Both the position numbers and the translations under genes were made by a program. Shown one piece after another: positions 6,030 to 64,000 of a DNA stretch of 64,000 nt; position 1 is the stretch's first letter, and each line of letters begins with the position of its first letter. The stretch is from an uncultured Elusimicrobia bacterium (GTDB taxonomy: Bacteria; Elusimicrobiota; Elusimicrobia; UBA1565; UBA9628), in the NCBI GenBank assembly GCA_965283875.1, contig CBDIQC010000001.1, positions 1,086,378 through 1,150,377 on the forward strand, written 5' to 3'. The notes beneath the pieces were generated by a model. The model did not search any database. It was not told the origin of the DNA and saw only the letters and a program-made list of their open reading frames with translations.

Positions 6030-6105
6030 TGGCCCGAATTCTACCAATAAGAGGAAGGCTCCTCGGCCCCGGAAAACGCTAGAATCGGCGGACAACGGAG
6101 AACCC

Positions 6106-46622: not shown

Positions 46623-46645
46623 CCGATTGATGTATTTGAAATTGA

Positions 46646-46674
46646 TTGACAGCCCCCGGGCGCGGGGCTATATA
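46646..46674 (+). promoter_or_regulatory. strong consensus-like sigma70 promoter TTGACA-17-TATATA directly upstream of RHS1; transcript would be leaderless or nearly so
   Basis: ttgaca 46646-51, tatata 46669-74, ATG 46684; the same ggggctatataggtgttcgcATG block recurs before RHS3 (56416-56437). Confidence 0.5.
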
Positions 46675-46683
46675 GGTGTTCGC

Positions 46684-49600
46684 ATGCCCCTCTTTCGCCG
46701 CCGCCTGTCCGTCGTTCTTAGCGCGCTGATAGCCTGCCCGTCATCTCTCCTGGCGCGCGTGCTCGACCCCATCGTCTTGCCCACCGCCGTGGTCACCGTC
46801 GTGCCCGCTCGAGATGACAATCCCAAGGGCCCCACGACCAGCGCCGCGCCCATCCCCGACGCCGTCTCGGCGTCTTTAGGCGCCGGCGACTCGCCCGCGA
46901 CTGACGGCGCAGACGGCAAAGTCGCGCTTCAGTCCACGCCCGCCTCACGGCTTCCCTGCGGCTCGCCGGCCCTCGACGCCGCGCCGCGTTTCCACAGCGG
47001 CAGCACGGTATCCACGCCTTGGGGCCTGGGCTGGTCCTCCGACCTCGATCATCAGCTCATCGTCGAGTCATCCCACACGGTGGTCTGGCTTGACGGCAAC
47101 GCCAACCGCGTCAGGCTGTTTAGAAGCGGCTCTAACCCGGCCCCGCCCCACGTCTATAACGCGCCTTCGGGGCTTTTCGTCAGGTTGACCGTCACCGGGC
47201 TGCTCTCAGGTCAACCCGGCACCGCCTCGCTTCGCGAAAAAGACGGCACCGTGCGTACTTTTAGCCGTCTCAACACGAATACGCCGCTCTACCTCACCGG
47301 CCTCACCGACCGCAACGGCAACACCGTCGCCTATACCCGCGTCTCGGGCCTGCTCACCAAAGTCTTAGACGTCCACGGCCGCTTCATCGACCTCACCTAC
47401 GACGCCTCAGACCGCGTCGCGTCCTTAACCGACTCGGCCGGGCGCACCTTCACCCACACCTACGACGCCCAAGGCCGCCGGCTCACTGAAAACGGCCCTG
47501 ACGGCTTGACCACCTACGCCTATGACGCGGGTAACCGCATCTCCCGGCTGACTTACCCCGACGGCGGCGTTAAGAACTTCACCTACGACGCCCAAGGCCG
47601 CGTGCTCACCGAAGACGACGGCGCGGGCGTTAACCGCCGCGCCTACGAATACCTAGCCGACCGCACCCGCGTTACCGACGCCGATAACGGCGTGACTACC
47701 ACCGAGTTCATCCAACGCGACGGCCTTAAAAAGCCCACCCGCGTCACCGACCCCGAAGGCCGCGTAACGACCTACACCTATGACGCGGCCTTTAACCTCG
47801 CCACCGTCACCGACCCCTTAAGCCGAATCACGCGTTACACCTACGACGCCCGCGGCAACGTCACCGTGACCCAGGACCCCGCCGGTGGATTCACCTTAGC
47901 CAGCTACGAGCCGGTTTTCGACATGCCCACCCAACTCACCAGCCCGCGAAGCCTCGTGACCACCTTAAGCTACGACGCCAAGGGCAACCTGACCACCGCG
48001 CTCGACCCCGCCGGTCAAAGCACCCAAAGAACCTACGACAGCTTCGGCCACCTCGCCACCGAGCGCGACCCCCGCAGCCAAACCACCGCCTTCACCTATA
48101 AAAGCGCCAACGGCGCGCTGGCCACGGTCACCGACCCAGAAGGCCGGGTGACCACGCTTACCACCGACGCCTTAAGCCGCGTTACCCGCAGCCTCGACGC
48201 CAAGGGCAAGGCCACCGATTACCAATACGACGCCTCGGGCAACCTGACCCAGGTCACCGACGACTTGGGCGGGGTGACCAGCTATCAATACGAACCCGGC
48301 CGTCCCAGCAAGCGCCTAATTAGCGTCACCGACGCCAAGAACCACACGACCAGCTTCCAGTACGACGGCCACGGCCGCTTAATCTCGGTAAGCAACGCCT
48401 TAAACCAGGCCCGCGGCTCGGTCTATGACGCCAAGGGCATGTTAACCCAGACCACTAATGCCCGCGGCCAGGTCATCAGCTACGACTACGACGGGGCGGG
48501 ACGCTTAACGGGCAAGGCCACGCCTGATGGTGCCTACAGCTACGCCTATGACCTAGCGGGCAACCTCACCTCGGTGAGCAACCAAAACGGCTCAGTCGCC
48601 ATGACCTACGACGCGCTTAACCGCGTCATCCAGGTGACCCAAAGCGTGCCCCCCGCAGCGCCGGTAATCATCGCCTATAGCTACGACGCCGACGGCAACC
48701 GCATCACGATGACAACGCCTTGGGGCAACTTCGCCTATGCCTACGACAACGCTAATCGCCTGACACGCATCACTAACCCCCAAAACGGCCACTTCGACTT
48801 CGATTACGACCTGGCAAGCCGACGGACAGAGCTGACTTACCCTAACGGCGTCATCACCACCTACGCCTATGACGACGCGGGTCAGGCCACGAGCATCGTC
48901 CACCGCAAAGGCGCCGGCGGCCCGATTATCGCGCGGGCCGACTACCAATACGACCTGGCGGGCAACCGGACCTCGATGACGGACCAAGACGGCCTGCACG
49001 CCTTCGACTACGACGACCTGCACCGCTTAACCGAGGCATTACACCCCAGCACGAACACCTTAGTCCAAGCCGAGACCTTCAGCTACGACGCGGTGGGCAA
49101 CCGGCTGGCGGATGCCCAAATCACGGGCTACACTTACGACAACGCCGACAGGCTGACGCAAAGCAGCAGCTTCACCTATACCTACGACGCCGACGGCAAC
49201 ATGACCAGTCGCACCGACCGGGCCACGAACTTGACGACCACCTTCGACTACGACAGCGAGAACCGGCTTACCGGCGCGCAACTGCCGGGCGGGCCCAATT
49301 GGACCTACAAGTACGACGCGTTAGGCCGACGCGTCCAGAAGTCGTCGGGGACCGCACCCAGCCAAATCACGCGCTACAGCTACGACGGCCAAGACATCAT
49401 CGCGACCAAGGCGGGTGACGACGCGTTAACCGGCGTGTACACCCACGGCGGGGGCATAGACGAGCCATTGGCGCTAGTGGCGAGCCAAGTCCACTTCATG
49501 CACGCTGATGCGCTCGGCTCGATAGTCGCTCACACGAGCCTGACCGGCGACCTACAGGAGCGCGTCAGCTACACGGCTTACGGGCAGGCAAGATTTAGCA

Positions 49601-50157
49601 ATGTCAGTGGTAGCACGAGCGCGGTGTCAGCGACGGGGAGCCCGTTCGCGTTTACGGCCCGAGAACTAGATGACGAGACGGGCCTATACTTCCACCGCAA
49701 CCGCCAGACTTATGAACCCGGGGCGGGGAGGTTCTTTCAGGCTGATCCGATAGGAATTGCGGGTGGGGTAAATACATACGCATACGTTGATTCCAACCCT
49801 CAGCGGTTTACCGACGCGTTTGGATTAAGCCCTGTCGAAGCAGACGTAAGTAATCAACGTGATTGGGGTGAGCAGGGAATTGAGCCTACGTACTTAGAGG
49901 TAGACGCCGTCTTGGCTGGAGTTGGTGGCGCCCCTTTCGCTGCAAACCGAATGTGCCAATTGAGTACTGGAAAGCCATTGAAGGCGTTCTTTAGATTTGA
50001 GATTGGCTCGTTCGGCAATCTGAGCGCTTCCGGTGCCGCCGGGAAAATAAGAACAAGACATTTCAATATAGGCGAACTCCATATTTTGATTAATCCTTTT
50101 AAGTACAGATATCTGACCGGGTCAGTATTTAAATTTTGGTGGAAGAAGCCAAAATGA
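46684..50157 (+). CDS. RHS-repeat polymorphic toxin 1 (full length, Sec signal peptide, YD repeats, RHS core ending ...DPxGL, ~110-aa unknown C-terminal toxin)
   Basis: signal peptide MPLFRRRLSVVLSALIACPSSLLA; dozens of YD repeats (YxYDxxGN/R); ...GRFFQADPIGIAGG...NPQRFTDAFGL then divergent AT-richer tip. Confidence 0.9.
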   Translation: MPLFRRRLSVVLSALIACPSSLLARVLDPIVLPTAVVTVVPARDDNPKGPTTSAAPIPDAVSASLGAGDSPATDGADGKVALQSTPASRLPCGSPALDAAPRFHSGSTVSTPWGLGWSSDLDHQLIVESSHTVVWLDGNANRVRLFRSGSNPAPPHVYNAPSGLFVRLTVTGLLSGQPGTASLREKDGTVRTFSRLNTNTPLYLTGLTDRNGNTVAYTRVSGLLTKVLDVHGRFIDLTYDASDRVASLTDSAGRTFTHTYDAQGRRLTENGPDGLTTYAYDAGNRISRLTYPDGGVKNFTYDAQGRVLTEDDGAGVNRRAYEYLADRTRVTDADNGVTTTEFIQRDGLKKPTRVTDPEGRVTTYTYDAAFNLATVTDPLSRITRYTYDARGNVTVTQDPAGGFTLASYEPVFDMPTQLTSPRSLVTTLSYDAKGNLTTALDPAGQSTQRTYDSFGHLATERDPRSQTTAFTYKSANGALATVTDPEGRVTTLTTDALSRVTRSLDAKGKATDYQYDASGNLTQVTDDLGGVTSYQYEPGRPSKRLISVTDAKNHTTSFQYDGHGRLISVSNALNQARGSVYDAKGMLTQTTNARGQVISYDYDGAGRLTGKATPDGAYSYAYDLAGNLTSVSNQNGSVAMTYDALNRVIQVTQSVPPAAPVIIAYSYDADGNRITMTTPWGNFAYAYDNANRLTRITNPQNGHFDFDYDLASRRTELTYPNGVITTYAYDDAGQATSIVHRKGAGGPIIARADYQYDLAGNRTSMTDQDGLHAFDYDDLHRLTEALHPSTNTLVQAETFSYDAVGNRLADAQITGYTYDNADRLTQSSSFTYTYDADGNMTSRTDRATNLTTTFDYDSENRLTGAQLPGGPNWTYKYDALGRRVQKSSGTAPSQITRYSYDGQDIIATKAGDDALTGVYTHGGGIDEPLALVASQVHFMHADALGSIVAHTSLTGDLQERVSYTAYGQARFSNVSGSTSAVSATGSPFAFTARELDDETGLYFHRNRQTYEPGAGRFFQADPIGIAGGVNTYAYVDSNPQRFTDAFGLSPVEADVSNQRDWGEQGIEPTYLEVDAVLAGVGGAPFAANRMCQLSTGKPLKAFFRFEIGSFGNLSASGAAGKIRTRHFNIGELHILINPFKYRYLTGSVFKFWWKKPK

Positions 50158-50750
50158 ACACCTCAGAATCTGATTACGTCATCATGAAACAACCAGTAGA
50201 TGCTTGGGCCCGTGATGCGGGCTGGGCCGACTACGACTCGAGCATTCAAATCTTCACGTTAAACCCCGGAATTATTTGCAACGAACAAGGCTGCCTCCTT
50301 GCGGAGTTGCTGGGGGCTTTTAGGAGTGGCCATCCGCACTCGGGTTTTATCATTGAGGATAAGTGGGCTCTGGGTCTCCATAAAGAAATTGGTGGCGCGC
50401 GGCAGATTGTCAAAAACGGAGCAAGCTACCTCTTTATTCAAGATCCCGCACTCGACGAGATCTCGAGTCTGTTTCGTCAGCACTGGAATGATATTGGGTT
50501 CGTTTTTACGGTTCGCTCTCAGCTGGAATCCGAGCGCAGCGTAGATGCGCTAATTACTGCATACGAAACAGAGCGGTGTGGACAGTTCCTGGAAAATTCC
50601 ATAGCCCACCTGCTGACTACCGGACACGATAACAACTTTATTTTTCTAGCGACAAAATCCGAGTTCACCGCCCTACAAGCACAAATAAAATCTATGTGTG
50701 AGAAATACGGCAAAACACTAAAAATTATCACGGGAGCTCGAAGAGGATAG
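50154..50750 (+). CDS. putative cognate immunity protein 1 (soluble, 198 aa)
   Basis: ATGA overlap with RHS1 stop; AT-rich; no TM, consistent with cytoplasm-acting toxin. Confidence 0.55.
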   Translation: MNTSESDYVIMKQPVDAWARDAGWADYDSSIQIFTLNPGIICNEQGCLLAELLGAFRSGHPHSGFIIEDKWALGLHKEIGGARQIVKNGASYLFIQDPALDEISSLFRQHWNDIGFVFTVRSQLESERSVDALITAYETERCGQFLENSIAHLLTTGHDNNFIFLATKSEFTALQAQIKSMCEKYGKTLKIITGARRG

Positions 50751-53700
50751 TTGTCGCGGTTTTTTTCGTGCCGCCGCCTGTGCGTCGTTCTCTGCGCGCT
50801 GATAGCCTGCCCGTCATCTCTCCTGGCGCGCGTGCTCGACCCCATCGTCTTGCCCACCGCCGTGGTCACCGTCGTGCCCGCTCGAGATGACAATCCCAAG
50901 GGCCCCACGACCAGCGCCGCGCCCATCCCGGACGCCGTGTCGTCATCTTTAGGCGCGGGCGACTCGCCCGCGACTGACGGCGCAGACGGCAAAGTCGCGC
51001 TTCAGTCCACTCCCGTCTCACGCCTTCCCTGCGGCTCCCCGGCGCTCGACGCCGCCCCGCGTTTCCACAGCGGCAGCACGGTCTTAACGCCTTGGGGCCT
51101 GGGCTGGTCCTCCGACCTCGACCACCAGCTCATCGTCGAATCATCTCACACGGTGGTCTGGCTCGACGGCAACGCTAATCGCGTCCGGCTGTTTCGCAGC
51201 GGCTCTAACCCGGCACCGCCACACGTCTATAACGCGCCTTCGGGGCTCTTCGTCAGGCTTACCGTCACCGGGCTGCTATCAGGCCAGCCGGGGACCGCCT
51301 CTCTTCGCGAAAAAGATGGCACTGTTCGCACCTTTAATCGTAGCAACGTCAACACGCCGCTCTACCTCACCGGCCTCATCGACCGCAACGGCAACACCGT
51401 CGCTTACACCCGCGTCTCGGGCCTGCTCACCAAAGTCTTAGACGTCCACGGCCGCTTCATCGACCTCACCTACGACGCCTCAGACCGCGTCGCGTCCTTA
51501 ACCGACTCGGCCGGGCGCACCTTCACCCACACCTACGACGCCCAAGGCCGCCGGCTCACTGAAAACGGCCCTGACGGCTTGACCACCTACGCCTATGACG
51601 CGGGTAACCGCATCTCCCGGCTGACTTACCCCGACGGCGGCGTTAAGAACTTCACCTACGACGCCCAAGGCCGCGTGCTCACCGAAGACGACGGCGCGGG
51701 CGTTAACCGCCGCGCCTATGAATACCTAGCCGACCGCACCCGCGTCACCGACGCCGATAACGGCGTGACTACCACCGAGTTCATCCAACGCGACGGCCTT
51801 AAAAAGCCCACCCGCGTCACCGACCCCGAAGGCCGCGTAACGACCTACACCTATGACGCGGCCTTTAACCTCGCCACCGTCACCGACCCCTTAAGCCGAA
51901 TCACGCGTTACACCTACGACGCCCGCGGCAACGTCACCGTGACCCAGGACCCCGCCGGTGGATTCACCTTAGCCAGCTACGAGCCGGTTTTCGACATGCC
52001 CACCCAACTCACCAGCCCGCGAAGCCTCGTGACCACCTTAAGCTACGACGCCAAGGGCAACCTGACCACCGCGCTCGACCCCGCCGGTCAAAGCACCCAA
52101 AGAACCTACGACAGCTTCGGCCACCTCGCCACCGAGCGCGACCCCCGCAGCCAAACCACCGCCTTCACCTATAAAAGCGCCAACGGCGCGCTGGCCACGG
52201 TCACCGACCCAGAAGGCCGGGTGACCACGCTTACCACCGACGCCTTAAGCCGCGTTACCCGCAGCCTCGACGCCAAGGGCAAGGCCACCGATTACCAATA
52301 CGACGCCTCGGGCAACCTGACCCAGGTCACCGACGACTTGGGCGGGGTGACCAGCTATCAATACGAACCCGGCCGTCCCAGCAAGCGCCTAATTAGCGTG
52401 ACCGACGCCAAGAACCACACGACCAGCTTCCAGTACGACGGCCACGGCCGCTTAATCTCGGTAAGCAACGCCTTAAACCAGGCCCGCGGCTCGGTCTATG
52501 ACGCCAAGGGCATGTTAACCCAGACCACTAATGCCCGCGGCCAGGTCATCAGCTACGACTACGACGGGGCGGGACGCTTAACGGGCAAGGCCACGCCTGA
52601 TGGTGCCTACAGCTACGCCTATGACCTAGCGGGCAACCTCACCTCGGTGAGCAACCAAAACGGCTCAGTCGCCATGACCTACGACGCGCTTAACCGCGTC
52701 ATCCAGGTGACCCAAAGCGTGCCCCCCGCAGCGCCGGTAATCATCGCCTATAGCTACGACGCCGACGGCAACCGCATCACGATGACAACGCCTTGGGGCA
52801 ACTTCGCCTATGCCTACGACAACGCTAATCGCCTGACACGCATCACCAACCCCCAAAACGGCCACTTCGACTTCGATTACGACCTGGCAAGCCGACGGAC
52901 CAGGCTGACTTACCCTAACGGCGTCATCACCACCTACGCTTACGACGACGCGGGTCAGGCGACCAGCATCGTCCACCGCAAAGGCGCCGGCGGCCCGATT
53001 ATCGCGCGGGCCGACTACCAATACGACCTGGCGGGCAACCGGACCTCGATGACGGACCAAGACGGCCTGCACGCCTTCGACTACGACGACCTGCACCGCT
53101 TAACCGAGGCATTACACCCCAGCACGAACACCTTAGTCCAAGCCGAGACCTTCAGCTACGACGCGGTGGGCAACCGGCTGGCGGATGCGCTCATTGGGGG
53201 CTACACTTACGACAGCGCCGATAGGCTCACGCAAAGCAGCAGCTTCACCTATACCTACGACGCCGACGGCAACATGACCAGTCGCACCGACCGGGCCACG
53301 AACTTGACGACCACCTTCGACTACGACAGCGAGAACCGGCTTACCGGCGCGCAACTGCCGGGCGGGCCCAATTGGACCTACAAGTACGACGCGTTAGGCA
53401 GACGCGTTCAGAAGTCGTCGGGGACCGCACCCAGTCAAATCACGCGCTACAGCTACGACGGCCAGGACATCATCGCGATGAGGGCGGGCGACGACGGGCT
53501 TAAGGCGGTCTATACGCACGGCGGGGGCATAGACGAGCCATTGGCGCTAGCGGCGAGCCAAGTCCACTTCATGCACGCTGATGCGCTCGGCTCGATAGTC
53601 GCTCACACGAGCCTGACCGGCGACCTACAGGAACGAATCAGCTACACGGCTTACGGGCAGGCAAGATTTAGCAATCTCAGTGGTAGCACGAGCGCGGTGT

Positions 53701-54263
53701 CGGTGACGGGCAGCCCGTTCGCGTTTACGGCGCGCGAGCTCGACGACGAGGCCGGGTTGTATTTCCACCGCAACCGCCAGACTTATGAGCCCGGGGCGGG
53801 GAGGTTTTTTCAGGCCGATCCGATCGGCATGCATGGCGGAATAAATCTTTTCGCGTATGGTGAAAACAACCCACTATCTAAAATCGATCCTTTCGGGACC
53901 GATGTGCTTCTTGTCCGTCAAGGCGCAAAAGAGTTTTTCCATGAGGTGGTGTATATCGGAAACCCACAGGCGGGATATACCAAGTTCGAATTCTCCCCAG
54001 CGACTTCAAGAACGCTACTGGTTTTGCCACTCGATTGGCCCGGGGTAGCATTTTATACGCCGTTAGCGCCAAAAGTGAAAGGTACAGTCGTTCGGCAATT
54101 TCCGCAAAGTGCCGATTTAGATGCGCTTGCTGTTATCCGTGGGCGCTCCAAAATCAAAGCCGGATGGGAAGACATGCCGTACAACCTTTACTCGAGAAAT
54201 TGTCGGGCGTTCTCGAGAACACTCTACTCAGAACTTACGACGAGCATGGGGCCATCACGGTGA
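50751..54263 (+). CDS. RHS-repeat polymorphic toxin 2 (TTG start; >95% identical body to RHS1; LRAT/NlpC-P60-like C-terminal toxin)
   Basis: same signal peptide core (ALIACPSSLLARVLDPIV); tip after ...NPLSKIDPFGT contains H (FFHEVVYIG) and C (YNLYSRNCRAF) in LRAT-like order. Confidence 0.85.
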   Translation: MSRFFSCRRLCVVLCALIACPSSLLARVLDPIVLPTAVVTVVPARDDNPKGPTTSAAPIPDAVSSSLGAGDSPATDGADGKVALQSTPVSRLPCGSPALDAAPRFHSGSTVLTPWGLGWSSDLDHQLIVESSHTVVWLDGNANRVRLFRSGSNPAPPHVYNAPSGLFVRLTVTGLLSGQPGTASLREKDGTVRTFNRSNVNTPLYLTGLIDRNGNTVAYTRVSGLLTKVLDVHGRFIDLTYDASDRVASLTDSAGRTFTHTYDAQGRRLTENGPDGLTTYAYDAGNRISRLTYPDGGVKNFTYDAQGRVLTEDDGAGVNRRAYEYLADRTRVTDADNGVTTTEFIQRDGLKKPTRVTDPEGRVTTYTYDAAFNLATVTDPLSRITRYTYDARGNVTVTQDPAGGFTLASYEPVFDMPTQLTSPRSLVTTLSYDAKGNLTTALDPAGQSTQRTYDSFGHLATERDPRSQTTAFTYKSANGALATVTDPEGRVTTLTTDALSRVTRSLDAKGKATDYQYDASGNLTQVTDDLGGVTSYQYEPGRPSKRLISVTDAKNHTTSFQYDGHGRLISVSNALNQARGSVYDAKGMLTQTTNARGQVISYDYDGAGRLTGKATPDGAYSYAYDLAGNLTSVSNQNGSVAMTYDALNRVIQVTQSVPPAAPVIIAYSYDADGNRITMTTPWGNFAYAYDNANRLTRITNPQNGHFDFDYDLASRRTRLTYPNGVITTYAYDDAGQATSIVHRKGAGGPIIARADYQYDLAGNRTSMTDQDGLHAFDYDDLHRLTEALHPSTNTLVQAETFSYDAVGNRLADALIGGYTYDSADRLTQSSSFTYTYDADGNMTSRTDRATNLTTTFDYDSENRLTGAQLPGGPNWTYKYDALGRRVQKSSGTAPSQITRYSYDGQDIIAMRAGDDGLKAVYTHGGGIDEPLALAASQVHFMHADALGSIVAHTSLTGDLQERISYTAYGQARFSNLSGSTSAVSVTGSPFAFTARELDDEAGLYFHRNRQTYEPGAGRFFQADPIGMHGGINLFAYGENNPLSKIDPFGTDVLLVRQGAKEFFHEVVYIGNPQAGYTKFEFSPATSRTLLVLPLDWPGVAFYTPLAPKVKGTVVRQFPQSADLDALAVIRGRSKIKAGWEDMPYNLYSRNCRAFSRTLYSELTTSMGPSR

Positions 54264-54562
54264 TACAAGCCACTCCAATCGTTCGTTCGATTGGCAAAGC
54301 GTTATCCTGGCTTCTGACGGCCTATCTGCTCCTCTACCTTACAGGGTTCGTGTTCGCCTACATGCAAAGCATTCCGGATCGTTGGGAATCGCCGTTGCTA
54401 CGGGGGTTCGGCTACGTTCTAACGGCAACTGCACTAATTCTGGCGTACGCAATTCCGCTGATGTACGTAAATGCAAAGAAGTCAGATTATCAATCAAGGT
54501 TGCGTCGATGGTTTGCTGTGGAAGTTGTCTCGATAGCACTTCTTATTGCGTATACATATTAG
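54260..54562 (+). CDS. putative immunity protein 2 (small 3-TM membrane protein, GTG start overlapping RHS2 stop)
   Basis: GTGA overlap; hydrophobic helices LSWLLTAYLLLYLTGFVFAY, FGYVLTATALILAYAIPLMYV, FAVEVVSIALLIAY. Confidence 0.45.
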   Translation: MIQATPIVRSIGKALSWLLTAYLLLYLTGFVFAYMQSIPDRWESPLLRGFGYVLTATALILAYAIPLMYVNAKKSDYQSRLRRWFAVEVVSIALLIAYTY

Positions 54563-54592
54563 TAGCAAGCCCGAGCATCGGCCTACGACGAC

Positions 54593-55957
54593 ATGGGCCG
54601 CTTAATGCAGACCGTCAACGCCCGCGGCCATACCGCTACCTACGCCTACGACGACGCGGGCCAGGCGACCAGCATCGTCCATCGCAAAGGCGCGGGCGGC
54701 CCGGTTATCGCGCGGGCCGACTACCAATACGACGCGGCAGGCAACCGGACCTCGATGACGGACCAAGACGGCCAGCACGCCTTCGACTACGACGACCTGC
54801 ACCGCTTAACCGAGGCCGTTCACCCCAGCACGAACACCTTAGTCCAAGCCGAGACCTTCAGCTACGACGCGGTGGGCAACCGGCTGGCGGATGCGCTCAT
54901 TGGGGGCTACACTTACGACAGCGCCGATAGGCTCACGCAAAGCAGCAGCTTCACCTATACCTACGACGCCGACGGCAACATGACCAGTCGCACCGACCGG
55001 GCCACGAACTTGACGACCACCTTCGACTACGACAGCGAGAACCGGCTTACCGGCGCGCAACTGCCGGGCGGGCCTAGCTGGACGTATAAATACGACGCCT
55101 TGGGGCGGCGCGTTCAGAAATCGTCGGGGACCGCACCCAGCCAAATCACGCGCTACAGCTACGACGGCCAAGACATCATCGCGACCAAGGCGGGCGACGA
55201 CGGGCTGAAGGCGGTCTATACGCACGGTGGCGGCATAGACGAGCCGCTGGCCCAGGTGGGTGAAGACGTTCACTTCATGCACGCTGATGCGCTCGGCTCA
55301 GTCGTGGCGCACACGAGCCTGACCGGCGACCTACAGGAGCGCGTCAGCTACACGGCTTACGGGCAGGCAAGATTTAGCAATCTCAGTGGTAGCACGAGCG
55401 CGGTGTCAACTACGGGGAGCCCGTTCGCGTTCACGGCCCGAGAACTAGACGACGAGACGGGCCTATACTTCCACCGCAATCGCCAGACTTATGAGCCGGG
55501 GGCGGGGAGGTTCTTTCAGGCCGACCCGATTGGGATTGCGGGTGGAGTGAATGTTTACGCGTATGTAGAAGGGCGACCGACCAAGCTGAGCGACCCCTAC
55601 GGCCTATTTATGTTCGAAGGAGGCATCTCTGGAATCGGTGATTTTATTCACAACTATATCGAGCTTAGAGCTGCGAACCGGGAGCAGAATTTAAGCGGAA
55701 CGGATAAGTACTATCACTGCAAAGCTAACTGTGAGTCGAGCAGCAGAGGTGCGGGAGGATTCGCTGTCGCATGCGCCGCATCGGTAACCCGAGAAGTGTT
55801 AGACATGCGAATCAAATCCTCGCCCGTCGATGACAGCGCCAAGGACATGCTTGCGAACATCTACGGGGCAGCAAGTGGCCGAGGTGCCAGTGCTCCAAGT
55901 CGTTGCCGTCAGATATGCGAGCCATTCCGCCCCAAAACGCTGGATCCAAAATATTAA
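54593..55957 (+). CDS. orphan 5'-truncated RHS C-terminal module with serum-amyloid-A (SAA)-like toxin tip
   Basis: begins mid-repeat after tandem stops (tagtag); RHS core ...RPTKLSDPYGL; tip DKYYHCKANCESSSRGAGGFAVA ... PFRPKTLDPKY aligns with SAA [23 protein letters not shown] ... HFRPAGLPEKY. Confidence 0.7.
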   Translation: MGRLMQTVNARGHTATYAYDDAGQATSIVHRKGAGGPVIARADYQYDAAGNRTSMTDQDGQHAFDYDDLHRLTEAVHPSTNTLVQAETFSYDAVGNRLADALIGGYTYDSADRLTQSSSFTYTYDADGNMTSRTDRATNLTTTFDYDSENRLTGAQLPGGPSWTYKYDALGRRVQKSSGTAPSQITRYSYDGQDIIATKAGDDGLKAVYTHGGGIDEPLAQVGEDVHFMHADALGSVVAHTSLTGDLQERVSYTAYGQARFSNLSGSTSAVSTTGSPFAFTARELDDETGLYFHRNRQTYEPGAGRFFQADPIGIAGGVNVYAYVEGRPTKLSDPYGLFMFEGGISGIGDFIHNYIELRAANREQNLSGTDKYYHCKANCESSSRGAGGFAVACAASVTREVLDMRIKSSPVDDSAKDMLANIYGAASGRGASAPSRCRQICEPFRPKTLDPKY

Positions 55958-55959
55958 CA

Positions 55960-56391
55960 ATGAAAGTCAACGCCCCAATCGCGGCAATACTATTCCTGAC
56001 GGCCGTACTAGCTTCATCGTGTGGATTCGAACGAGTGAATAACTACTACCCGGATTATGTGGCGGCCAACAAAACCTCGAATGATTATCTCCCGAAATTT
56101 ATGCCGAAGAACGCCACGCTGATTTATGAACAGCATGATTTCGACACCAATGAATCTTGGGTAGCGTTTAGGTTTATCGAGCAGGATATTGCGAGCATCG
56201 AGGCGGCGTGCACATCGACAGGGGCGCCGCCTTCGCGTCTACCCATAAATATTATTGGGTTGAAAAGACGCTGGTGGTATCGATACCCACTGGATTCAAC
56301 TGCTACACGCCAACTAATCCGTGGCTGTAGCGGTGGTGGCTCAATATACATCGACCAGCCAAATAGTGTCGCCTATTTCTGGCGTCGGTAA
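55960..56391 (+). CDS. putative immunity lipoprotein for the SAA-like tip
   Basis: starts 3 nt after orphan stop; MKVNAPIAAILFLTAVLASSCG lipoprotein signal; AT-rich. Confidence 0.5.
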   Translation: MKVNAPIAAILFLTAVLASSCGFERVNNYYPDYVAANKTSNDYLPKFMPKNATLIYEQHDFDTNESWVAFRFIEQDIASIEAACTSTGAPPSRLPINIIGLKRRWWYRYPLDSTATRQLIRGCSGGGSIYIDQPNSVAYFWRR

Positions 56392-56434
56392 TTTATTCAC
56401 AGCCTCTTGGCGGCGGGGCTATATAGGTGTTCGC

Positions 56435-59400
56435 ATGCTCCTCTTTCGCCGCCGCCTGTCCGTCGTTCTTAGCGCGCTGATAGCCTGCCCGTCATCTCTC
56501 CTGGCGCGCGTTCTCGACCCCATCGTCTTGCCCACCGCCGTGGTCACCGTCGTGCCCGCTCGAGATGACAATCCCAAGGGCCCCACGACCAGCGCCGCGC
56601 CCATCCCGGACGCCGTGTCGTCATCTTTAGGCGCGGGCGACTCGCCCGCGACTGACGGCGCAGACGGCAAAGTCGCGCTTCAGTCCACTCCCGTCTCACG
56701 CCTTCCCTGCGGCTCCCCGGCGCTCGACGCCGCCCCGCGTTTCCACAGCGGCAGCACGGTCTTAACGCCTTGGGGCCTGGGCTGGTCCTCCGACCTCGAC
56801 CACCAGCTCATCGTCGAATCATCTCACACGGTGGTCTGGCTCGACGGCAACGCTAATCGCGTCCGGCTGTTTCGCAGCGGCTCTAACCCGGCACCGCCAC
56901 ACGTCTATAACGCGCCTTCGGGGCTTTTCGTCAGGTTGACCGTCACCGGGCTGCTCTCAGGTCAGCCGGGTACCGCGTCTTTGCGCGAAAAAGACGGCAC
57001 GGTGCGCACCTTTAACCGCAGCAATATAAACTCGCCGCTATACCTCACCGGCCTCGTTGACCGCAACGGCAACACCGTCAGCTACACCCGCGTCTCGGGC
57101 CTGCTCACCAGGGTCTTAGACGTCCACGGCCGCTTCATCGACCTCACCTACGACGCCTCAGACCGCGTCGCGTCCTTAACCGACTCGGCCGGGCGCACCT
57201 TCACCCACACCTACGACGCCCAAGGCCGCCGGCTCACTGAAAACGGCCCTGACGGCTTGACCACCTACGCCTATGACGCGGGTAACCGCATCTCCCGGCT
57301 GACTTACCCCGACGGCGGCGTTAAGAACTTCACCTACGACGCCCAAGGCCGCGTGCTCACCGAAGACGACGGCGCGGGCGTTAACCGCCGCGCCTATGAA
57401 TACCTAGCCGACCGCACCCGCGTCACCGACGCCGATAACGGCGTGACTACCACCGAGTTCATCCAACGCGACGGCCTTAAAAAGCCCACCCGCGTCACCG
57501 ACCCCGAAGGCCGCGTAACGACCTACACCTATGACGCGGCCTTTAACCTCGCCACCGTCACCGACCCCTTAAGCCGAATCACGCGTTACACCTACGACGC
57601 CCGCGGCAACGTCACCGTGACCCAGGACCCCGCCGGTGGATTCACCTTAGCCAGCTACGAGCCGGTTTTCGACATGCCCACTTTGCTCACCAGCCCGCGA
57701 AGCCTCGTGACCACCTTAAGCTACGACGCCAAGGGCAACCTGACCACCGCGCTCGACCCCGCCGGTCAAAGCACCCAAAGAACCTACGACAGCTTCGGCC
57801 ACCTCGCCACCGAGCGCGACCCCCGCAGCCAAACCACCGCCTTCACCTATAAAAGCGCCAACGGCGCGCTGGCCACGGTCACCGACCCAGAAGGCCGGGT
57901 GACCACGCTTACCACCGACGCCTTAAGCCGCGTTACCCGCAGCCTCGACGCCAAGGGCAAGGCCACCGATTACCAATACGACGCCTCGGGCAACCTGACC
58001 CAGGTCACCGACGACTTGGGCGGGGTGACCAGCTATCAATACGAACCCGGCCGTCCCAGCAAGCGCCTAATTAGCGTCACCGACGCCAAGAACCACACGA
58101 CCAGCTTCCAGTACGACGGCCACGGCCGCTTAATCTCGGTAAGCAACGCCTTAAACCAGGCCCGCGGCTCGACCTACGACGCCAAGGGCATGTTAACCCA
58201 GACCACTAATGCCCGCGGCCAGGTCATCAGCTACGACTACGACGGGGCGGGTCGCTTAACGGGCAAGGCCACGCCTGATGGTGCTTACAGCTACGCCTAT
58301 GACCTAGCGGGCAACCTCACCTCGGTGAGCAACCAAAACGGCTCAGTCGCCATGACCTACGACGCGCTTAACCGCGTCACCCAGGTGACCCAAAGCGTGC
58401 CCCCCGCAGCGCCGGTAATCATCGCCTATAGCTACGACGCCGACGGCAACCGCACAAGCATGACAACGCCTTGGGGCAACTTCGCCTATGCCTACGACAA
58501 CGCTAATCGCCTGACACGCATCACTAACCCCCAAAACGGCCACTTCGACTTCGATTACGACCTGGCAAGCCGACGGACCAGGCTGACTTACCCTAACGGC
58601 GTCATCACCACCTACGCTTACGACGACGCGGGCCAGGCGACCAACATCGTTCACCGCAAAGGCGCCGGCGGCCCGATTATCGCGCGGGCCGACTACCAAT
58701 ACGACGCGGCGGGCAACCGCACGCAGTTAACCGACCTAGACGGCCTGCACGCCTTCGACTACGACGACCTGCACCGCTTAACCGAGGCATTGCACCCCAG
58801 CACGAACACCTTAGTCCAAGCCGAGACCTTCAGCTACGACGCGGTGGGCAACCGACTGGCGGATGCCGAGGTTACGGGCTACACTTACGACAGCGCCAAC
58901 CGGCTCACGCAAAGCAGCAGCTTCACCTATACCTACGACGCCGACGGCAACATGACCAGCCGCACCGACCGGGCCACGAACTTGACGACCACCTTCGACT
59001 ACGACAGCGAGAACCGGCTTACCGGCGCGCAACTGCCGGGCGGGCCCAATTGGACCTACAAGTACGACGCGTTAGGCCGACGCGTCCAGAAGTCGTCGGG
59101 GACCGCACCCAGCCAAATCACGCGCTACAGCTACGACGGCCAGGACATCATCGCGACCAAGGCGGGTGACGACGCGTTAACCGGCGTGTACACCCACGGC
59201 GGGGGCATAGACGAGCCATTGGCGCTAGTGGCGAGCCAAGTTCACTTCATGCACGCCGACGCGCTCGGCTCAGTCGTGGCGCACACGAGCCTGACCGGCG
59301 ACCTACAGGAGCGCGTCAGCTACACGGCTTACGGGCAGGCAAGATTTAGCAGTGTCAACGGCAGCACGAGCGCGGTGTCGGTGACGGGGAGCCCGTTCGC

Positions 59401-60004
59401 GTTCACGGCCCGAGAACTAGACGACGAGACGGGCCTATACTTCCACCGCAACCGCCAGACTTATGAGCCGGGGGCGGGGAGGTTCTTTCAGGCGGACCCC
59501 ATTGGGATTGCGGGTGGGGTGAACGTCTATGCGTATGTCGAGGGGCGGCCGACAAAATTGAGCGATCCTTTGGGGCTAATTCGAGATGACCCTGGCGAAA
59601 ACCTCTACTTCTCAGGCAACAATGCCAGCATCTACGCTCTGGAAGCATCGAATCTTGAACTTATTAGTGATTTCTCTGCTGGATTCGGCGACAATATTAG
59701 TCGCGGCGTTACTCGAAATATCAGAGAACGCTTTATTTCTGGCGGCGGCGTAAATCGGTGCGCGACCGCCTATAGTATTGGAAACGCTACTGGCGTTGGG
59801 TTTTATATCGCAGGCGGTGTTTTAGGTGGAGCTCGAGTAGGTGCGAGCGTTGCTGCCACTCACAGCGGGGCAATTAGTAAATGGTTAAGCCAAGGACAAT
59901 TATGGCGAGTTGGTCGTTCTGGCGGAGCCAACAACCGGGTGCTCCGGATTGGGCCCTGGAAGTCAAAATGGAATCACATCGACTTGTCAATCTTCGGGTA
60001 TTAA
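56435..60004 (+). CDS. RHS-repeat polymorphic toxin 3 (full length; Gly-zipper-rich C-terminal tip)
   Basis: same promoter/leader and signal peptide as RHS1; tip after ...PTKLSDPLGL contains GVGFYIAGGVLGGARVGASVAA glycine-zipper segment. Confidence 0.9.
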   Translation: MLLFRRRLSVVLSALIACPSSLLARVLDPIVLPTAVVTVVPARDDNPKGPTTSAAPIPDAVSSSLGAGDSPATDGADGKVALQSTPVSRLPCGSPALDAAPRFHSGSTVLTPWGLGWSSDLDHQLIVESSHTVVWLDGNANRVRLFRSGSNPAPPHVYNAPSGLFVRLTVTGLLSGQPGTASLREKDGTVRTFNRSNINSPLYLTGLVDRNGNTVSYTRVSGLLTRVLDVHGRFIDLTYDASDRVASLTDSAGRTFTHTYDAQGRRLTENGPDGLTTYAYDAGNRISRLTYPDGGVKNFTYDAQGRVLTEDDGAGVNRRAYEYLADRTRVTDADNGVTTTEFIQRDGLKKPTRVTDPEGRVTTYTYDAAFNLATVTDPLSRITRYTYDARGNVTVTQDPAGGFTLASYEPVFDMPTLLTSPRSLVTTLSYDAKGNLTTALDPAGQSTQRTYDSFGHLATERDPRSQTTAFTYKSANGALATVTDPEGRVTTLTTDALSRVTRSLDAKGKATDYQYDASGNLTQVTDDLGGVTSYQYEPGRPSKRLISVTDAKNHTTSFQYDGHGRLISVSNALNQARGSTYDAKGMLTQTTNARGQVISYDYDGAGRLTGKATPDGAYSYAYDLAGNLTSVSNQNGSVAMTYDALNRVTQVTQSVPPAAPVIIAYSYDADGNRTSMTTPWGNFAYAYDNANRLTRITNPQNGHFDFDYDLASRRTRLTYPNGVITTYAYDDAGQATNIVHRKGAGGPIIARADYQYDAAGNRTQLTDLDGLHAFDYDDLHRLTEALHPSTNTLVQAETFSYDAVGNRLADAEVTGYTYDSANRLTQSSSFTYTYDADGNMTSRTDRATNLTTTFDYDSENRLTGAQLPGGPNWTYKYDALGRRVQKSSGTAPSQITRYSYDGQDIIATKAGDDALTGVYTHGGGIDEPLALVASQVHFMHADALGSVVAHTSLTGDLQERVSYTAYGQARFSSVNGSTSAVSVTGSPFAFTARELDDETGLYFHRNRQTYEPGAGRFFQADPIGIAGGVNVYAYVEGRPTKLSDPLGLIRDDPGENLYFSGNNASIYALEASNLELISDFSAGFGDNISRGVTRNIRERFISGGGVNRCATAYSIGNATGVGFYIAGGVLGGARVGASVAATHSGAISKWLSQGQLWRVGRSGGANNRVLRIGPWKSKWNHIDLSIFGY

Positions 60005-60252
60005 TGAGTCCCCCGAAGAACTGTCCTTCTTGCGGCAACAAGCAAGTTCCCGGCACTGATGCTTGTTCCAAATGCGGGCGCCTGCAGTATCGTCAGTTAG
60101 GCGCGCCGCTGCGTATAAGCGCGGGTGTTTTTTCATGCATCATAGTCGCAGGATTATATTTCAATTCAGCATCCTTCCCATTCTGGTCAAATGTTCTGGC
60201 AGCAATTAATGCCTTCTTTTTCTGCTATCTCGCGCTTTTTGGCCGAGTCTAA
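60004..60252 (+). CDS. putative immunity protein 3: zinc-ribbon (CPSC...CSKC) plus 2-TM membrane protein
   Basis: TAATG overlap with RHS3 stop; alternative upstream ATG at 59968 inside RHS3 less likely. Confidence 0.45.
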   Translation: MSPPKNCPSCGNKQVPGTDACSKCGRLQYRQLGAPLRISAGVFSCIIVAGLYFNSASFPFWSNVLAAINAFFFCYLALFGRV

Positions 60253-60269
60253 CGCTTACGACGACATGC

Positions 60270-62480
60270 ATGCTCGACCCCGCCGGTCAAAGCACCCAAA
60301 GAACCTACGACAGCTTCGGCCATCTCGCCACCGAGCGCGACCCCCGCAGCCAAACCACCGCCTTCACCTATAAAAGCGCCAACGGCGCGCTGGCCACGGT
60401 CACCGACCCAGAAGGCCGGGTGACCACGCTTACCACCGACGCCTTAAGCCGCGTTACCCGCAGCCTCGACGCCAAGGGCAAGGCCACCGATTACCAATAC
60501 GACGCCTCGGGCAACCTGACCCAGGTCACCGACGACTTGGGCGGGGTGACCAGTTACCAATACGAGCCCGGCCGCCCCGCCAAGCGCCTAATTAGCGTCA
60601 CCGACGCCAAGAACCACACGACCAGCTTCCAGTACGACGGCCACGGCCGCTTAATCTCGGTAAGCAACGCCTTAAACCAGGCCCGCGGCTCGACCTACGA
60701 CGCCAAGGGCATGTTAACCCAGACCACTAATGCCCGCGGCCAGGTCATCAGCTACGACTACGACGGGGCGGGACGCTTAACGGGCAAGGCCACGCCTGAT
60801 GGTGCCTACAGCTACGCCTATGACCTAGCGGGTAACCTCACCTCGGTGAGCAACCAAAACGGCTCAGTCGCCATGACCTACGACACGCTTAACCGCGTCA
60901 CCCAGGTGACCCAAAGCGTGCCCCCCGCAGCGCCGGTAATCATCGCCTATAGCTACGACGCCGACGGCAACCGCATCACGATGACCACGCCTTGGGGCAA
61001 CTTCGCCTATGCCTACGACAACGCTAATCGCCTGACACGCATCACTAACCCCCAAAACGGCCACTTCGACTTCGATTACGACCTAGCAAGCCGACGGACA
61101 GAGCTGACTTACCCTAACGGCGTCATCACCACCTACGCCTATGACGACGCGGGCCAGGCGACCAGCATCGTTCACCGCAAAGGCGCCGGCGGCCCGATTA
61201 TCGCGCGGGCCGACTACCAATACGACCTGGCGGGCAACCGCACGCAGTTAACCGACCTAGACGGCCAGCACGCCTTCGACTACGACGACCTGCACCGCTT
61301 AACCGAGGCATTACACCCCAGCACGAACACCTTAGTCCAAGCCGAGACCTTCAGCTACGACGCGGTGGGCAACCGGCTGGCGGATGCGCTCATTGGGGGC
61401 TACACTTACGACAGCGCCGATAGGCTCACGCAAAGCAGCAGCTTCACCTATACCTACGACGCCGACGGCAACATGACCAGTCGCACCGACCGGGCCACGA
61501 ACTTGACGACCACCTTCGACTACGACAGCGAGAACCGGCTTACCGGCGCGCAACTGCCGGGCGGGCCCAATTGGACCTACAAGTACGACGCGTTAGGCCG
61601 ACGCGTTCAGAAATCGTCGGGCACCCTGTCGAGCCAAATCACGCGCTACAGCTACGACGGCCAGGACATCATCGCGACCAAGGCGGGTGACGACGCGTTA
61701 ACCGGCGTGTACACCCACGGCGGGGGCATAGACGAGCCATTGGCGCTAGTGGCGAGCCAAGTCCACTTCATGCACGCCGACGCGCTCGGCTCAGTCGTGG
61801 CGCACACGAGCCTGACCGGCGACCTACAGGAGCGCGTCAGCTACACGGCTTACGGGCAGGCAAGATTTAGCAGTGTCAACGGAAGCACGAGCGCGGTGTC
61901 GATGACGGGCAGCCCGTTCGCGTTCACGGCCCGAGAGCTCGACGGCGAAACGCACTTGCATTACTACCGCGGACGCCAGACTTACGACGCCACAACGGGG
62001 AGATTCGGGCAGGATGACCCGGTCCTGCATCCGGGGTATTCCAATCAGGAGTATGCACTGGGCAATCCAGTCAAATACAGGGATCCGATGGGCACGGATG
62101 TGTTGCTTATCGAACGTCATGCCTGGGGAAAATACCATCAAGAAATCTGGGTTGGCAACATCGGAGGATATACGTCATATGGATTCGTGCCGTCGGCCTT
62201 GGGCAAGTATCAGTCGGTTGCAGGATTCGAAGTGAGCGGATCCATACAACCGAATCGAGGCATGAGCTATTCGAAAATACCCTCGTATATTCCATTTGCC
62301 GGCTACACGCTACTGGGCCGTATTAATCAGGACGAATACTCAGACCTAAGACTACGTGCGTATCTCGAAAGTGGAGAGCTCGCAAAAAACTGGAGCCGCT
62401 ATAGTCTGTACTCGCGGAATTGCCAAGATTTTGCCCAGGATGTATTCAGCAAAGTTCTTCATGAGAAAAAAGCGAGATGA
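60270..62480 (+). CDS. orphan 5'-truncated RHS C-terminal module with LRAT/NlpC-like tip (paralog of RHS2 tip)
   Basis: starts mid-repeat (…LDPAGQSTQRTYD) at an internal ATG; tip YHQEIWVGN...YSLYSRNCQDFAQDVF. Confidence 0.75.
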   Translation: MLDPAGQSTQRTYDSFGHLATERDPRSQTTAFTYKSANGALATVTDPEGRVTTLTTDALSRVTRSLDAKGKATDYQYDASGNLTQVTDDLGGVTSYQYEPGRPAKRLISVTDAKNHTTSFQYDGHGRLISVSNALNQARGSTYDAKGMLTQTTNARGQVISYDYDGAGRLTGKATPDGAYSYAYDLAGNLTSVSNQNGSVAMTYDTLNRVTQVTQSVPPAAPVIIAYSYDADGNRITMTTPWGNFAYAYDNANRLTRITNPQNGHFDFDYDLASRRTELTYPNGVITTYAYDDAGQATSIVHRKGAGGPIIARADYQYDLAGNRTQLTDLDGQHAFDYDDLHRLTEALHPSTNTLVQAETFSYDAVGNRLADALIGGYTYDSADRLTQSSSFTYTYDADGNMTSRTDRATNLTTTFDYDSENRLTGAQLPGGPNWTYKYDALGRRVQKSSGTLSSQITRYSYDGQDIIATKAGDDALTGVYTHGGGIDEPLALVASQVHFMHADALGSVVAHTSLTGDLQERVSYTAYGQARFSSVNGSTSAVSMTGSPFAFTARELDGETHLHYYRGRQTYDATTGRFGQDDPVLHPGYSNQEYALGNPVKYRDPMGTDVLLIERHAWGKYHQEIWVGNIGGYTSYGFVPSALGKYQSVAGFEVSGSIQPNRGMSYSKIPSYIPFAGYTLLGRINQDEYSDLRLRAYLESGELAKNWSRYSLYSRNCQDFAQDVFSKVLHEKKAR

Positions 62481-62842
62481 ACTCTCTCAATAGGATTGTT
62501 TGGGCCATATTGTTGGCCATCATAGTGCTCCCTCTGATGTTATACGGGACATCGCTGGCGTTAGGGCTCGGCTCGTTTGCAGTATATTTAATCGCCAATT
62601 CTCAGCATGCAAACAGAGTCCTTGAGTTATATGCCATGGTGATAGTGGCTGGGTTATTTGGCATCCTGCTATGGGCACTTCCGTTTATAGGTTGGAGAGC
62701 AAAGAATCGCCAATCGCGGACCATGTATGCCATAGCGGCGGCGTGGATTGTCCAGATGCTTGTAATTGCCTGCATAGCAGGCTTTGCGAAACAAAAAACG
62801 CCGGCGTTGTTCAACGAATTGCAGATTCGATATATACGTTAA
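62477..62842 (+). CDS. putative immunity protein 4 (4-TM membrane protein)
   Basis: ATGA overlap; four hydrophobic helices; AT-rich. Confidence 0.55.
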   Translation: MNSLNRIVWAILLAIIVLPLMLYGTSLALGLGSFAVYLIANSQHANRVLELYAMVIVAGLFGILLWALPFIGWRAKNRQSRTMYAIAAAWIVQMLVIACIAGFAKQKTPALFNELQIRYIR

Positions 62843-62865
62843 CTTCCGGCCACGTCGCTACCAAT

Positions 62866-64000
62866 CGCGTTACCCGCAGCCTCGACGCCAAGGGCAAGGC
62901 CACCGATTACCAATACGACGCCTCGGGCAACCTGACCCAGGTCACCGACGACTTGGGCGGGGTGACCAGTTACCAATACGAGCCCGGCCGCCCCGCCAAG
63001 CGCCTAATTAGCGTCACCGACGCCAAGAACCACACGACCAGCTTCCAGTACGACGGCCACGGCCGCTTAATCTCGGTAAGCAACGCCTTAAACCAGGCCC
63101 GCGGCTCGACCTACGACGCCAAGGGCATGTTAACCCAGACCACTAATGCCCGCGGCCAGGTCATCAGCTACGACTACGACGGGGCGGGACGCTTAACGGG
63201 CAAGGCCACGCCTGATGGTGCCTACAGCTACGCCTATGACCTAGCGGGTAACCTCACCTCGGTGAGCAACCAAAACGGCTCAGTCGCCATGACCTACGAC
63301 GCGCTTAACCGCGTCATCCAGGTGACCCAAAGCGTGCCCCCCGCAGCGCCGGTAATCATCGCCTATAGCTACGACGCCGACGGCAACCGCATCACGATGA
63401 CAACGCCTTGGGGCAACTTCGCCTATGCCTACGACAACGCTAATCGCCTGACACGCATCACCAACCCCCAAAACGGCCACTTCGACTTCGATTACGACCT
63501 GGCAAGCCGACGGACAGAGCTGACTTACCCTAACGGCGTCATCACCACCTACGCCTATGACGACGCGGGTCAGGCCACGAGCATCGTCCACCGCAAAGGC
63601 GCCGGCGGCCCGATTATCGCGCGGGCCGACTACCAATACGACCTGGCGGGCAACCGGACCTCGATGACGGACCAAGACGGCCTGCACGCCTTCGACTACG
63701 ACGACCTGCACCGCTTAACCGAGGCATTACACCCCAGCACGAACACCTTAGTCCAAGCCGAGACCTTCAGCTACGACGCGGTGGGCAACCGGCTGGCGGA
63801 TGCCCAAATCACGGGCTACACTTACGACAACGCCGACAGGCTGACGCAAAGCAGCAGCTTCACCTATACCTACGACGCCGACGGCAACATGACCAGTCGC
63901 ACCGACCGGGCCACGAACTTGACGACCACCTTCGACTACGACAGCGAGAACCGGCTTACCGGCGCGCAACTGCCGGGCGGGCCCAATTGGACCTACAAGT
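62866..64000 (+). CDS. third orphan RHS fragment (5'-truncated, continues beyond window end)
   Basis: near-identical to RHS1 from ...RVTRSLDAKGKATDYQYD onward; no stop before position 64000 so absent from ORF track. Confidence 0.7.

Follow-up and report, generated by a model that had tools for sequence, protein, structure and literature searches.

The C-terminus of the RHS protein RhsD of enterohaemorrhagic Escherichia coli (EHEC) resembles human serum amyloid A (SAA) 1, and seven PAAR-Rhs proteins of O157:H7 carry the Pfam SAA domain PF00277 (Vazquez-Lopez & Navarro-Garcia, 2020; PMC7216683). Bacterial SAA homologues have also been described (Zamocky & Ferianc, 2023). More recently, SAA was placed within the Lipocone superfamily, and its prokaryotic relatives, termed prok-SAA, were recognized as polymorphic-toxin tips that are delivered through type VI secretion (T6SS) or with MuF and have immunity partners that are transmembrane (TM) proteins or lipoproteins (Burroughs, Nicastro & Aravind, eLife 2025; PMC12419801). 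Here we analysed a stretch of 64,000 nucleotides from an uncultured Elusimicrobia bacterium (contig CBDIQC010000001.1 of assembly GCA_965283875.1, positions 1,086,378 to 1,150,377), hereafter the window. It contains an RHS gene fragment without its 5′ part (54593..55957, +) which ends in an SAA-like tip, directly followed by a lipoprotein gene (55960..56391, +). We consider it probable that the fragment is an orphan, 5′-truncated and displaced RHS cassette with a divergent prok-SAA tip and that the lipoprotein, of the YbbD_head family (PF26610), is its immunity protein.

A preliminary description of the locus, made from the letters alone, had regarded the SAA domain as undescribed in the role of a polymorphic-toxin tip. 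This part of it has been overtaken by the reports of PF00277 in PAAR-Rhs tips in 2020 (PMC7216683) and of prok-SAA in 2025 (PMC12419801); the main idea, an SAA domain at the tip of an RHS toxin, is already in the literature, and the tip in the window is a divergent new member of a known family. In the network data of PMC12419801, RHS is adjacent to prok-SAA and upstream of Imm-SAA. The same work infers a shared active site, formed by a His on helix H2, a Glu on H3 and an Asp on H4, that acts on phosphate-linked lipid head groups, and argues from the membrane-anchored immunity proteins that the site of toxin action is periplasmic or at the membrane. Experimentally, this is anchored in TelC, the only characterized Lipocone toxin, for which lipid II is the substrate, and in the phosphatidylserine synthases PTDSS1/2 (PMC12419801). 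According to the account of Whitney et al. (2017) given in PMC12419801, TelC is active only outside the cytoplasm and cleaves lipid II at the undecaprenyl-phosphate linkage. A literature search for experimental work on prok-SAA or Lipocone toxins, Rhs-SAA or ybbD returned no such study.

The SAA-like tip of the RHS orphan

The features of the locus are as follows.

54566..55606 (+): 5′-truncated RHS core fragment (orphan) with RHS/YD repeats and RHS-associated core; first ATG at 54593
54638..55593 (+): block of about 91% DNA identity between the orphan and the 3′ core of every other rhs gene of the window, from blastn against the window
55592..55606 (+): DPYGL cleavage motif at the end of the RHS core fragment, where the TIGR03696 match ends
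55607..55957 (+): toxin tip, prok-SAA domain (Lipocone, SAA-Wnt clade), 116 amino acids plus stop codon, from Pfam SAA, matches in the PDB and conservation
55960..56391 (+): predicted cognate immunity gene, lipoprotein of 143 amino acids, YbbD_head (PF26610)
55960..56022 (+): signal peptide and lipobox (MKVNAPIAAILFLTAVLASS followed by C) of the immunity protein, read from the sequence

The preliminary description had proposed that the residues after DPYGL share more with vertebrate SAA than chance allows, and its open reading frame (ORF), coordinates and quoted peptide strings were all found in the sequence. The Pfam search that it had asked for bore the proposal out: the tip scored 72.7 bits (E 3.7e-20) with PF00277, for which the gathering cutoff is 30.8, and the alignment, which might have collapsed on comparison of the full domain, extended over positions 6-102 of the 102 in the profile. 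Plain phmmer searches against solved SAA structures also retrieved human SAA1 (4ip8, E 1.1e-7) and mouse SAA3 (4q5g, E 4e-6). The motifs DKY[FY]H, RGxGG, S-x-x-RE, D-x-x-AN-x-x-G and FRPxxL..KY are common to the tip and animal SAA (Met-SAA, PF00277, 4ip8), which have a homologous helical domain. Unlike the tip, animal SAA is secreted on its own as an apolipoprotein, whose N-terminal segment is amyloidogenic and binds lipid; it lacks the four conserved cysteines of the bacterial tips and has neither an RHS carrier nor an immunity partner. The hallmarks of Met-SAA, a free-standing secreted protein of ~104 amino acids with an N-terminal amphipathic amyloidogenic segment, are not those of the tip; in bacterial tips, the counterpart of this segment (SAA residues 1-11) is absent or unconserved.

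For a detailed characterization of the conserved residues, 148 bacterial tip representatives were aligned with human SAA1; residue numbers refer to the 115-amino-acid tip translated from 55610. Invariant or nearly so, and all retained in the window tip, were D32, H36, A39, N40, R46, G47, G50 and S58 as well as R61, E62, D65, D79, A82, N83 and G86. Among these, H36 (100% of the representatives), E62 (99%) and D79 (100%) form the putative active site, and with N83 they are the predicted catalytic residues. The three fit the His (H2), Glu (H3) and Asp (H4) of the active site proposed by Burroughs et al., their placement on helices H2-H4 being inferred from the helix boundaries of human SAA1 and the description in PMC12419801. 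Furthermore, C37, C41, C99 and C103 are conserved in the bacterial tips and present here but absent from human SAA1; at position 55, the window tip contains one further Cys.

The bacterial family of the tip is large. When the representatives of 1.84 billion clusters at 50% identity were searched exhaustively with HMMER, 662 proteins reached E<=1e-3, and for 223 of them E was <=1e-10. The SAA domain was C-terminal in 139 of the 150 best matches, several of which are proteins of 1,000-2,500 amino acids with RHS-repeat motifs, and 74 of the same 150 have a DPxGL-type motif within ~90 residues upstream of the domain. The closest other cluster representative is only ~51% identical to the tip. A word-indexed protein search and a contig scan with patterns derived from the tip alone gave no match, because the tip is too divergent for exact-word searches. 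Using a single pattern from the tip alignment, 126 loci with SAA-type tips were found among species-representative genomes of Proteobacteria, Nitrospirota, Acidobacteriota, Bacteroidales, cyanobacteria and others.

The window tip shares with the prok-SAA family the SAA-homologous C-terminal position, the His/Glu/Asp/Asn set, the sNxxG motif, the predicted nature of a soluble helical domain and the membrane-anchored or lipoprotein immunity protein, with the periplasm as the predicted site of action. It differs by the missing Arg of sNxxGR, by a rare insert of four residues and by an identity to other members that does not exceed ~51%.

SAA-domain proteins of 256-306 amino acids, whose Pfam annotation holds no RHS repeats, were also seen (L087 5036..5956; L089 5145..5915), which shows that the domain is also borne by shorter, non-RHS proteins. 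Each of these two genes is followed by a YbbD_head gene.

The downstream lipoprotein gene

The ATG at 55960 lies 2 nt past the stop codon of the orphan; an alternative start at ATG 55915 would give a form of 158 amino acids (P0151) with an N-terminus longer by 15 residues. The N-terminus of the 143-amino-acid protein consists of an n-region, a hydrophobic core and a cysteine at position 21 (LASSC). In seven of eight homologues this cysteine is aligned with a lipobox cysteine (GC, AAC), and the assignment of the gene as a lipoprotein gene in the preliminary description was thereby upheld. The family shares the motif YPD…GW[IL]PxF[LM]PxxAxxIxExHxxDTNExW…F and two conserved cysteines.

Membership of the immunity protein in YbbD_head was established indirectly, through precomputed annotations and profile comparisons. 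A local Pfam scan of the protein returned no family, even at E 10. A search with the profile of the lipoprotein family retrieved 39 proteins, all 39 of which carry the precomputed Pfam annotation PF26610 YbbD_head, as does P0151, and the protein matched the NCBIfam model PRK09781 (YbbD) with E 0.0013. The AlphaFold2 (AF2) model has an alpha+beta fold with a mean predicted local distance difference test score (pLDDT) of 79.6. The two-helix hairpin followed by three beta-strands that defines Imm-BamE was not found in the immunity protein.

Pairing of SAA-type tips with YbbD_head lipoproteins

The first downstream ORF was inspected at 75 loci with SAA-type tips from species-representative genomes. 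At seven of them (L004, L006, L008, L011, L037, L052 and L055) it encodes a lipoprotein homologous to that of 55960..56391, with phmmer E values from 3e-17 to 8e-8. In 53 of the 75 (L007, L009, L012-L015, L018-L020 and others) the tip is followed by a single-pass membrane peptide of ~50 residues with the signature IDxCLDxGGxWxxxxxxC. Possibly this peptide is what Burroughs et al. call 'TM+Imm-SAA', but it has two cysteines, and their text describes four conserved ones. In the reverse direction, the YbbD_head genes P0154 and P0161, which were picked regardless of their neighbours, lie directly downstream of Pfam-SAA genes.

The recurrence of YbbD_head homologues after SAA-type tips in unrelated bacteria suggests that 55960..56391 is the cognate immunity gene, as the preliminary description had it. 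By position and recurrence, the orphan thus appears to have a cognate immunity gene directly downstream, as do polymorphic toxins, and the predicted SAA-type toxin and the YbbD_head lipoprotein form a conserved pair across unrelated lineages.

Two YbbD_head genes of Stenotrophomonas maltophilia CP033877.1 (L091 2837..3262 and 6001..6459) have no adjoining SAA-domain gene; they may be orphan immunity genes directed against the toxins of neighbours.

We also considered a separate tip subclade for each type of immunity protein. This was rejected, as mean identity to the window tip was 41.6% for tips paired with YbbD_head and 40.6% for those paired with the TM peptide. The nearest tip locus, L004 in a metagenome-assembled genome of Nitrospira (50% identity), is of the YbbD_head type.

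The ylbH–ybbD locus of E. coli

A related pair is present in E. coli K-12.

NC_000913.3 527949..529130 (L003 5950..7131): ylbH–ybbD, pseudogenes b0499/b0501, at the rhsD locus

The pseudogene ylbH, too, is an RHS orphan; it ends in TYEDMKRLNLGGTDQFFHCMAFC, and its SAA-like tip is divergent. Against Pfam SAA this tip scored 20.6 bits (E 6e-4), which is below the cutoff. It was connected to the window tip by BLASTP (E 2e-8) and to the profile of the tip family by hhalign (96.3%, E 1.6e-9), and the N-terminus of YbbD aligned with the immunity-family profile (hhalign 82.5%, E 1e-5). These comparisons identify ylbH–ybbD as a diverged version of the predicted SAA-tip/YbbD_head pairing. Of the 5,426 complete genomes of E. 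coli, 2,865 have the module, which in some strains is located on a full-length rhsD.

In ylbH–ybbD and in the EHEC RhsD z0651, a C-terminal RHS fragment or tip with an SAA-like sequence (TDQFFHCMAFC...) precedes YbbD, an arrangement shared with the window locus. The E. coli tip is, however, much more divergent, and YbbD has a TM anchor in place of the lipobox and is split into two ORFs in K-12. Moreover, E. coli Rhs proteins are linked to PAAR and the T6SS, and the delivery modes given in the prok-SAA survey are T6SS and MuF; the full-length RHS genes of the window, by contrast, encode Sec signal peptides and no PAAR.

Anatomy of the orphan and of the rhs array

The orphan ORF (54593..55957, +) encodes 454 amino acids in an intact frame of the ORF listing. 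RHS/YD repeats are present (Pfam RHS_repeat, E 2.5e-27), and the Rhs_assc_core model TIGR03696 was matched over its whole length (1-76 of 76) by orphan residues 253-338, up to DPYGL. The orphan has, therefore, the YD/RHS repeats, the core and the DPxGL motif ahead of a variable tip that characterize RHS polymorphic toxins. Upstream of ATG 54593 an RHS-like frame (AYDDMGRLMQTVNARGHTATYAYDDAGQ) is open from 54566 onwards, after TAG TAG at 54560-54565. These codons are the stop of the preceding gene for a membrane-protein-like product, so that the orphan frame abuts that gene. The fragment begins within the repeat region, and neither a signal peptide nor an N-terminal or delivery domain was found in it. 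It is thus an orphan cassette and not a complete toxin gene; with its truncated core, complete TIGR03696 match and DPYGL but no N-terminal domain, it is what the preliminary description had called an RHS orphan.

Block 54638..55593 was 90.5-91.5% identical over 824-958 bp to the rhs genes at 48859.., 52932.., 58610.. and 61131.. and 94.7% identical over 437 bp to the rhs fragment at 63547.. (blastn). Identity of the orphan to its paralogues stops at ~55593. The GC content falls from ~63% in the RHS core to ~53% in the tip and ~52% across the tip and the next gene, and the same fall was seen at every tip–immunity block of the rhs array. The block is possibly a substrate of homologous recombination, by which the SAA tip could be grafted onto a full-length rhs gene.

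The rhs array that contains the orphan and the SAA tip spans 46585..64000 of the window. Its full-length genes are given below.

46585..50157: full-length RHS gene with Sec-type signal peptide
50751..54263: full-length RHS gene with Sec-type signal peptide
~56435..60004: full-length RHS gene with Sec-type signal peptide

A PAAR domain was not detected in these full-length genes, and no VgrG was seen. In addition, at least three cassettes of the array are 5′-truncated orphans: 54566..55957, 60270..62480 and, starting at ~63547, a core fragment. The small low-GC gene that follows each RHS gene or cassette is presumably its immunity gene.

Several neighbouring genes were noted. The tip of the second orphan (60270..62480) has a weak Peptidase_C97/PPPDE match (E 0.005), and the gene after it (62477..62842) encodes a membrane-like protein of 121 amino acids with a weak tetraspanin-like match. 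ORF 54035..54562, also for a membrane-like protein, overlaps the terminus (stop at 54263) of the full-length rhs gene upstream of it and itself terminates 4 nt before the open frame of the orphan; probably it encodes the immunity protein for that rhs toxin. Outside the array, 38285..45747 (−) encodes an IPT/TIG-repeat protein of 2,193 amino acids that has a ZU5 domain and weakly matches a C-terminal sorting domain of the type IX secretion system (T9SS), and a gene for a PorV-like outer-membrane protein adjoins it. Together, the weak sorting-domain match and the PorV-like neighbour hint at a host lineage with a T9SS.

Proposed function and alternative explanations

Most probably, as stated above, the locus is a displaced RHS cassette with a prok-SAA tip and its YbbD_head immunity gene. 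To act as a toxin, the tip would either be joined by recombination to a full-length rhs gene with Sec signal or be produced by low-level independent expression of the orphan. The RHS shell would enclose the tip, which would be released by an autoproteolytic cut at DPYGL and delivered into the periplasm of a neighbouring cell, where the two disulfides predicted for C37/C41–C99/C103 would form. The disulfide-stabilized five-helix domain would then work enzymatically, hydrolysing or exchanging the phosphate-linked head group of either a membrane lipid or an undecaprenyl-linked precursor of the cell wall. In sibling cells, the membrane-anchored periplasmic lipoprotein would bind and block the tip.

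The lipobox and the conserved cysteine pair of the immunity protein, together with the four conserved cysteines of the toxin, argue for an oxidizing, periplasmic site of action, and the periplasm- or membrane-targeted activity expected in the preliminary description would fit such a pair. By analogy with TelC, the tip is likely to be a periplasm-acting enzyme directed at head groups of lipids or lipid carriers; that it has TelC-like lipid II phosphoesterase activity we infer only from membership in the superfamily. The TelC–TipC pair of Streptococcus intermedius likewise combines a Lipocone toxin tip with a membrane-anchored, extracytoplasmic immunity protein. It differs from the window pair in that TelC belongs to another Lipocone clade and is delivered through the type VII secretion system (T7SS) with LXG in Gram-positive bacteria, and TipC is unrelated to YbbD_head; direct sequence similarity between TelC and the window tip was neither tested for nor seen.

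Several observations weigh against this interpretation. Position 87 of the tip is Ala where 93% of the representatives have Arg, which breaks the 'GR' of sNxxGR; the region reads A82-N83-I-Y-G86-A87, so that the small residue, Asn and Gly are retained and Arg is replaced. Position 59 is Val where D, E or N occurs in 91% of the representatives, and the tip carries a four-residue insert, EQNL, found in ~5% of the members. With these changes the tip could be weakened or of altered specificity. The single-sequence AF2 model of the tip has five helices at a pLDDT of 50, a low confidence at which no fold search was started from it. No convincing promoter or ribosome-binding site (Shine-Dalgarno) was found 5′ of the orphan, and a scan for promoters and terminators around it gave nothing above the shuffled expectation; having no recognizable promoter, Shine-Dalgarno sequence or delivery domain, the orphan may be silent. 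The full-length RHS genes encode Sec signals, and no PAAR or VgrG was seen, so that a route from the periplasm of the producer to the target cell would have to be assumed. Finally, no prok-SAA toxin has been tested experimentally, and toxicity and substrate are hence predictions.

Some of these points would also suit a silent relic, that is, a decaying or archival cassette which is never expressed and in which only the immunity gene matters, as a protection against the SAA-tipped toxins of neighbours. We regard this as unlikely, though it has to be taken seriously. The fragment is truncated at its 5′ end, abuts the preceding stop and has no signal peptide, clear promoter or ribosome-binding site; YbbD_head genes stand without a toxin gene in S. 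maltophilia, and the equivalent pair of K-12, ylbH–ybbD, is annotated as pseudogenes. On the other hand, the frame of 454 codons is intact with every family-invariant residue kept, and the RHS-associated core and the cleavage motif are complete. Furthermore, the same 454-amino-acid protein is recorded in a public protein collection as an NCBI sequence, and the block of 956 bp with 91% identity permits re-activation through recombination.

If the tip is active, it might still not be an enzyme. The preliminary description had pictured it as an amyloid-forming, lipid-binding helical domain, and an SAA-like bundle could bind lipid or membrane or form amyloid- or pore-like assemblies in the envelope of the target cell. 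Passages cited in PMC12419801 report that animal SAA binds high-density lipoprotein (HDL), lipids and OmpA and forms amyloid, and catalysis has been shown for no member of the SAA clade. This mechanism did not, however, agree with the conservation pattern. The bacterial tips do not conserve, or do not have, the stretch of SAA residues 1-11 on which lipid binding and amyloid formation depend, the Pfam match beginning at profile position 5-6, and conservation is concentrated not in hydrophobic faces but in polar His, Glu, Asp, Asn and Arg residues resembling an active site and in the four, presumably disulfide-forming, cysteines. As the related TelC is an enzyme as well, an amyloid or lipid-binding role appears less likely than an enzymatic one on the evidence of these residues, and a non-enzymatic membrane toxin is in our judgement improbable. 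The idea that the resemblance to SAA is due to chance or composition, with the tip a member of some unrelated toxin family, is refuted. It could draw on the merely modest pairwise identity to human SAA1 and on nothing else; the Pfam score lies 42 bits above the gathering cutoff (E 3.7e-20) over nearly the whole model, several SAA structures were matched independently by phmmer, and hundreds of intermediate bacterial sequences connect the tip with SAA.

Implications

The YbbD_head immunity partner, its link to ylbH–ybbD and the RHS context with Sec signal may go beyond the published survey. It is a tentative proposal, which we would not yet favour, that YbbD_head is an undescribed immunity class for SAA-type toxins, set apart from the BamE-like and the four-cysteine Imm-SAA classes by their published descriptions, and that the window represents prok-SAA on a Sec-exported, PAAR- and T6SS-independent RHS protein in a lineage that has T9SS-like genes. 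If true, this would add a delivery route not yet listed for prok-SAA toxins and would give a function to the long-unexplained pseudogene pair ylbH–ybbD of E. coli K-12. With ylbH–ybbD present in about half of the complete E. coli genomes, the family is testable in a model organism. The compact pair of the window, a tip of 116 and a lipoprotein of 143 amino acids, is a convenient reagent for testing the enzyme prediction for the SAA clade of the Lipocone superfamily, and such a test would have a bearing on the question of what animal serum amyloid A does biochemically.

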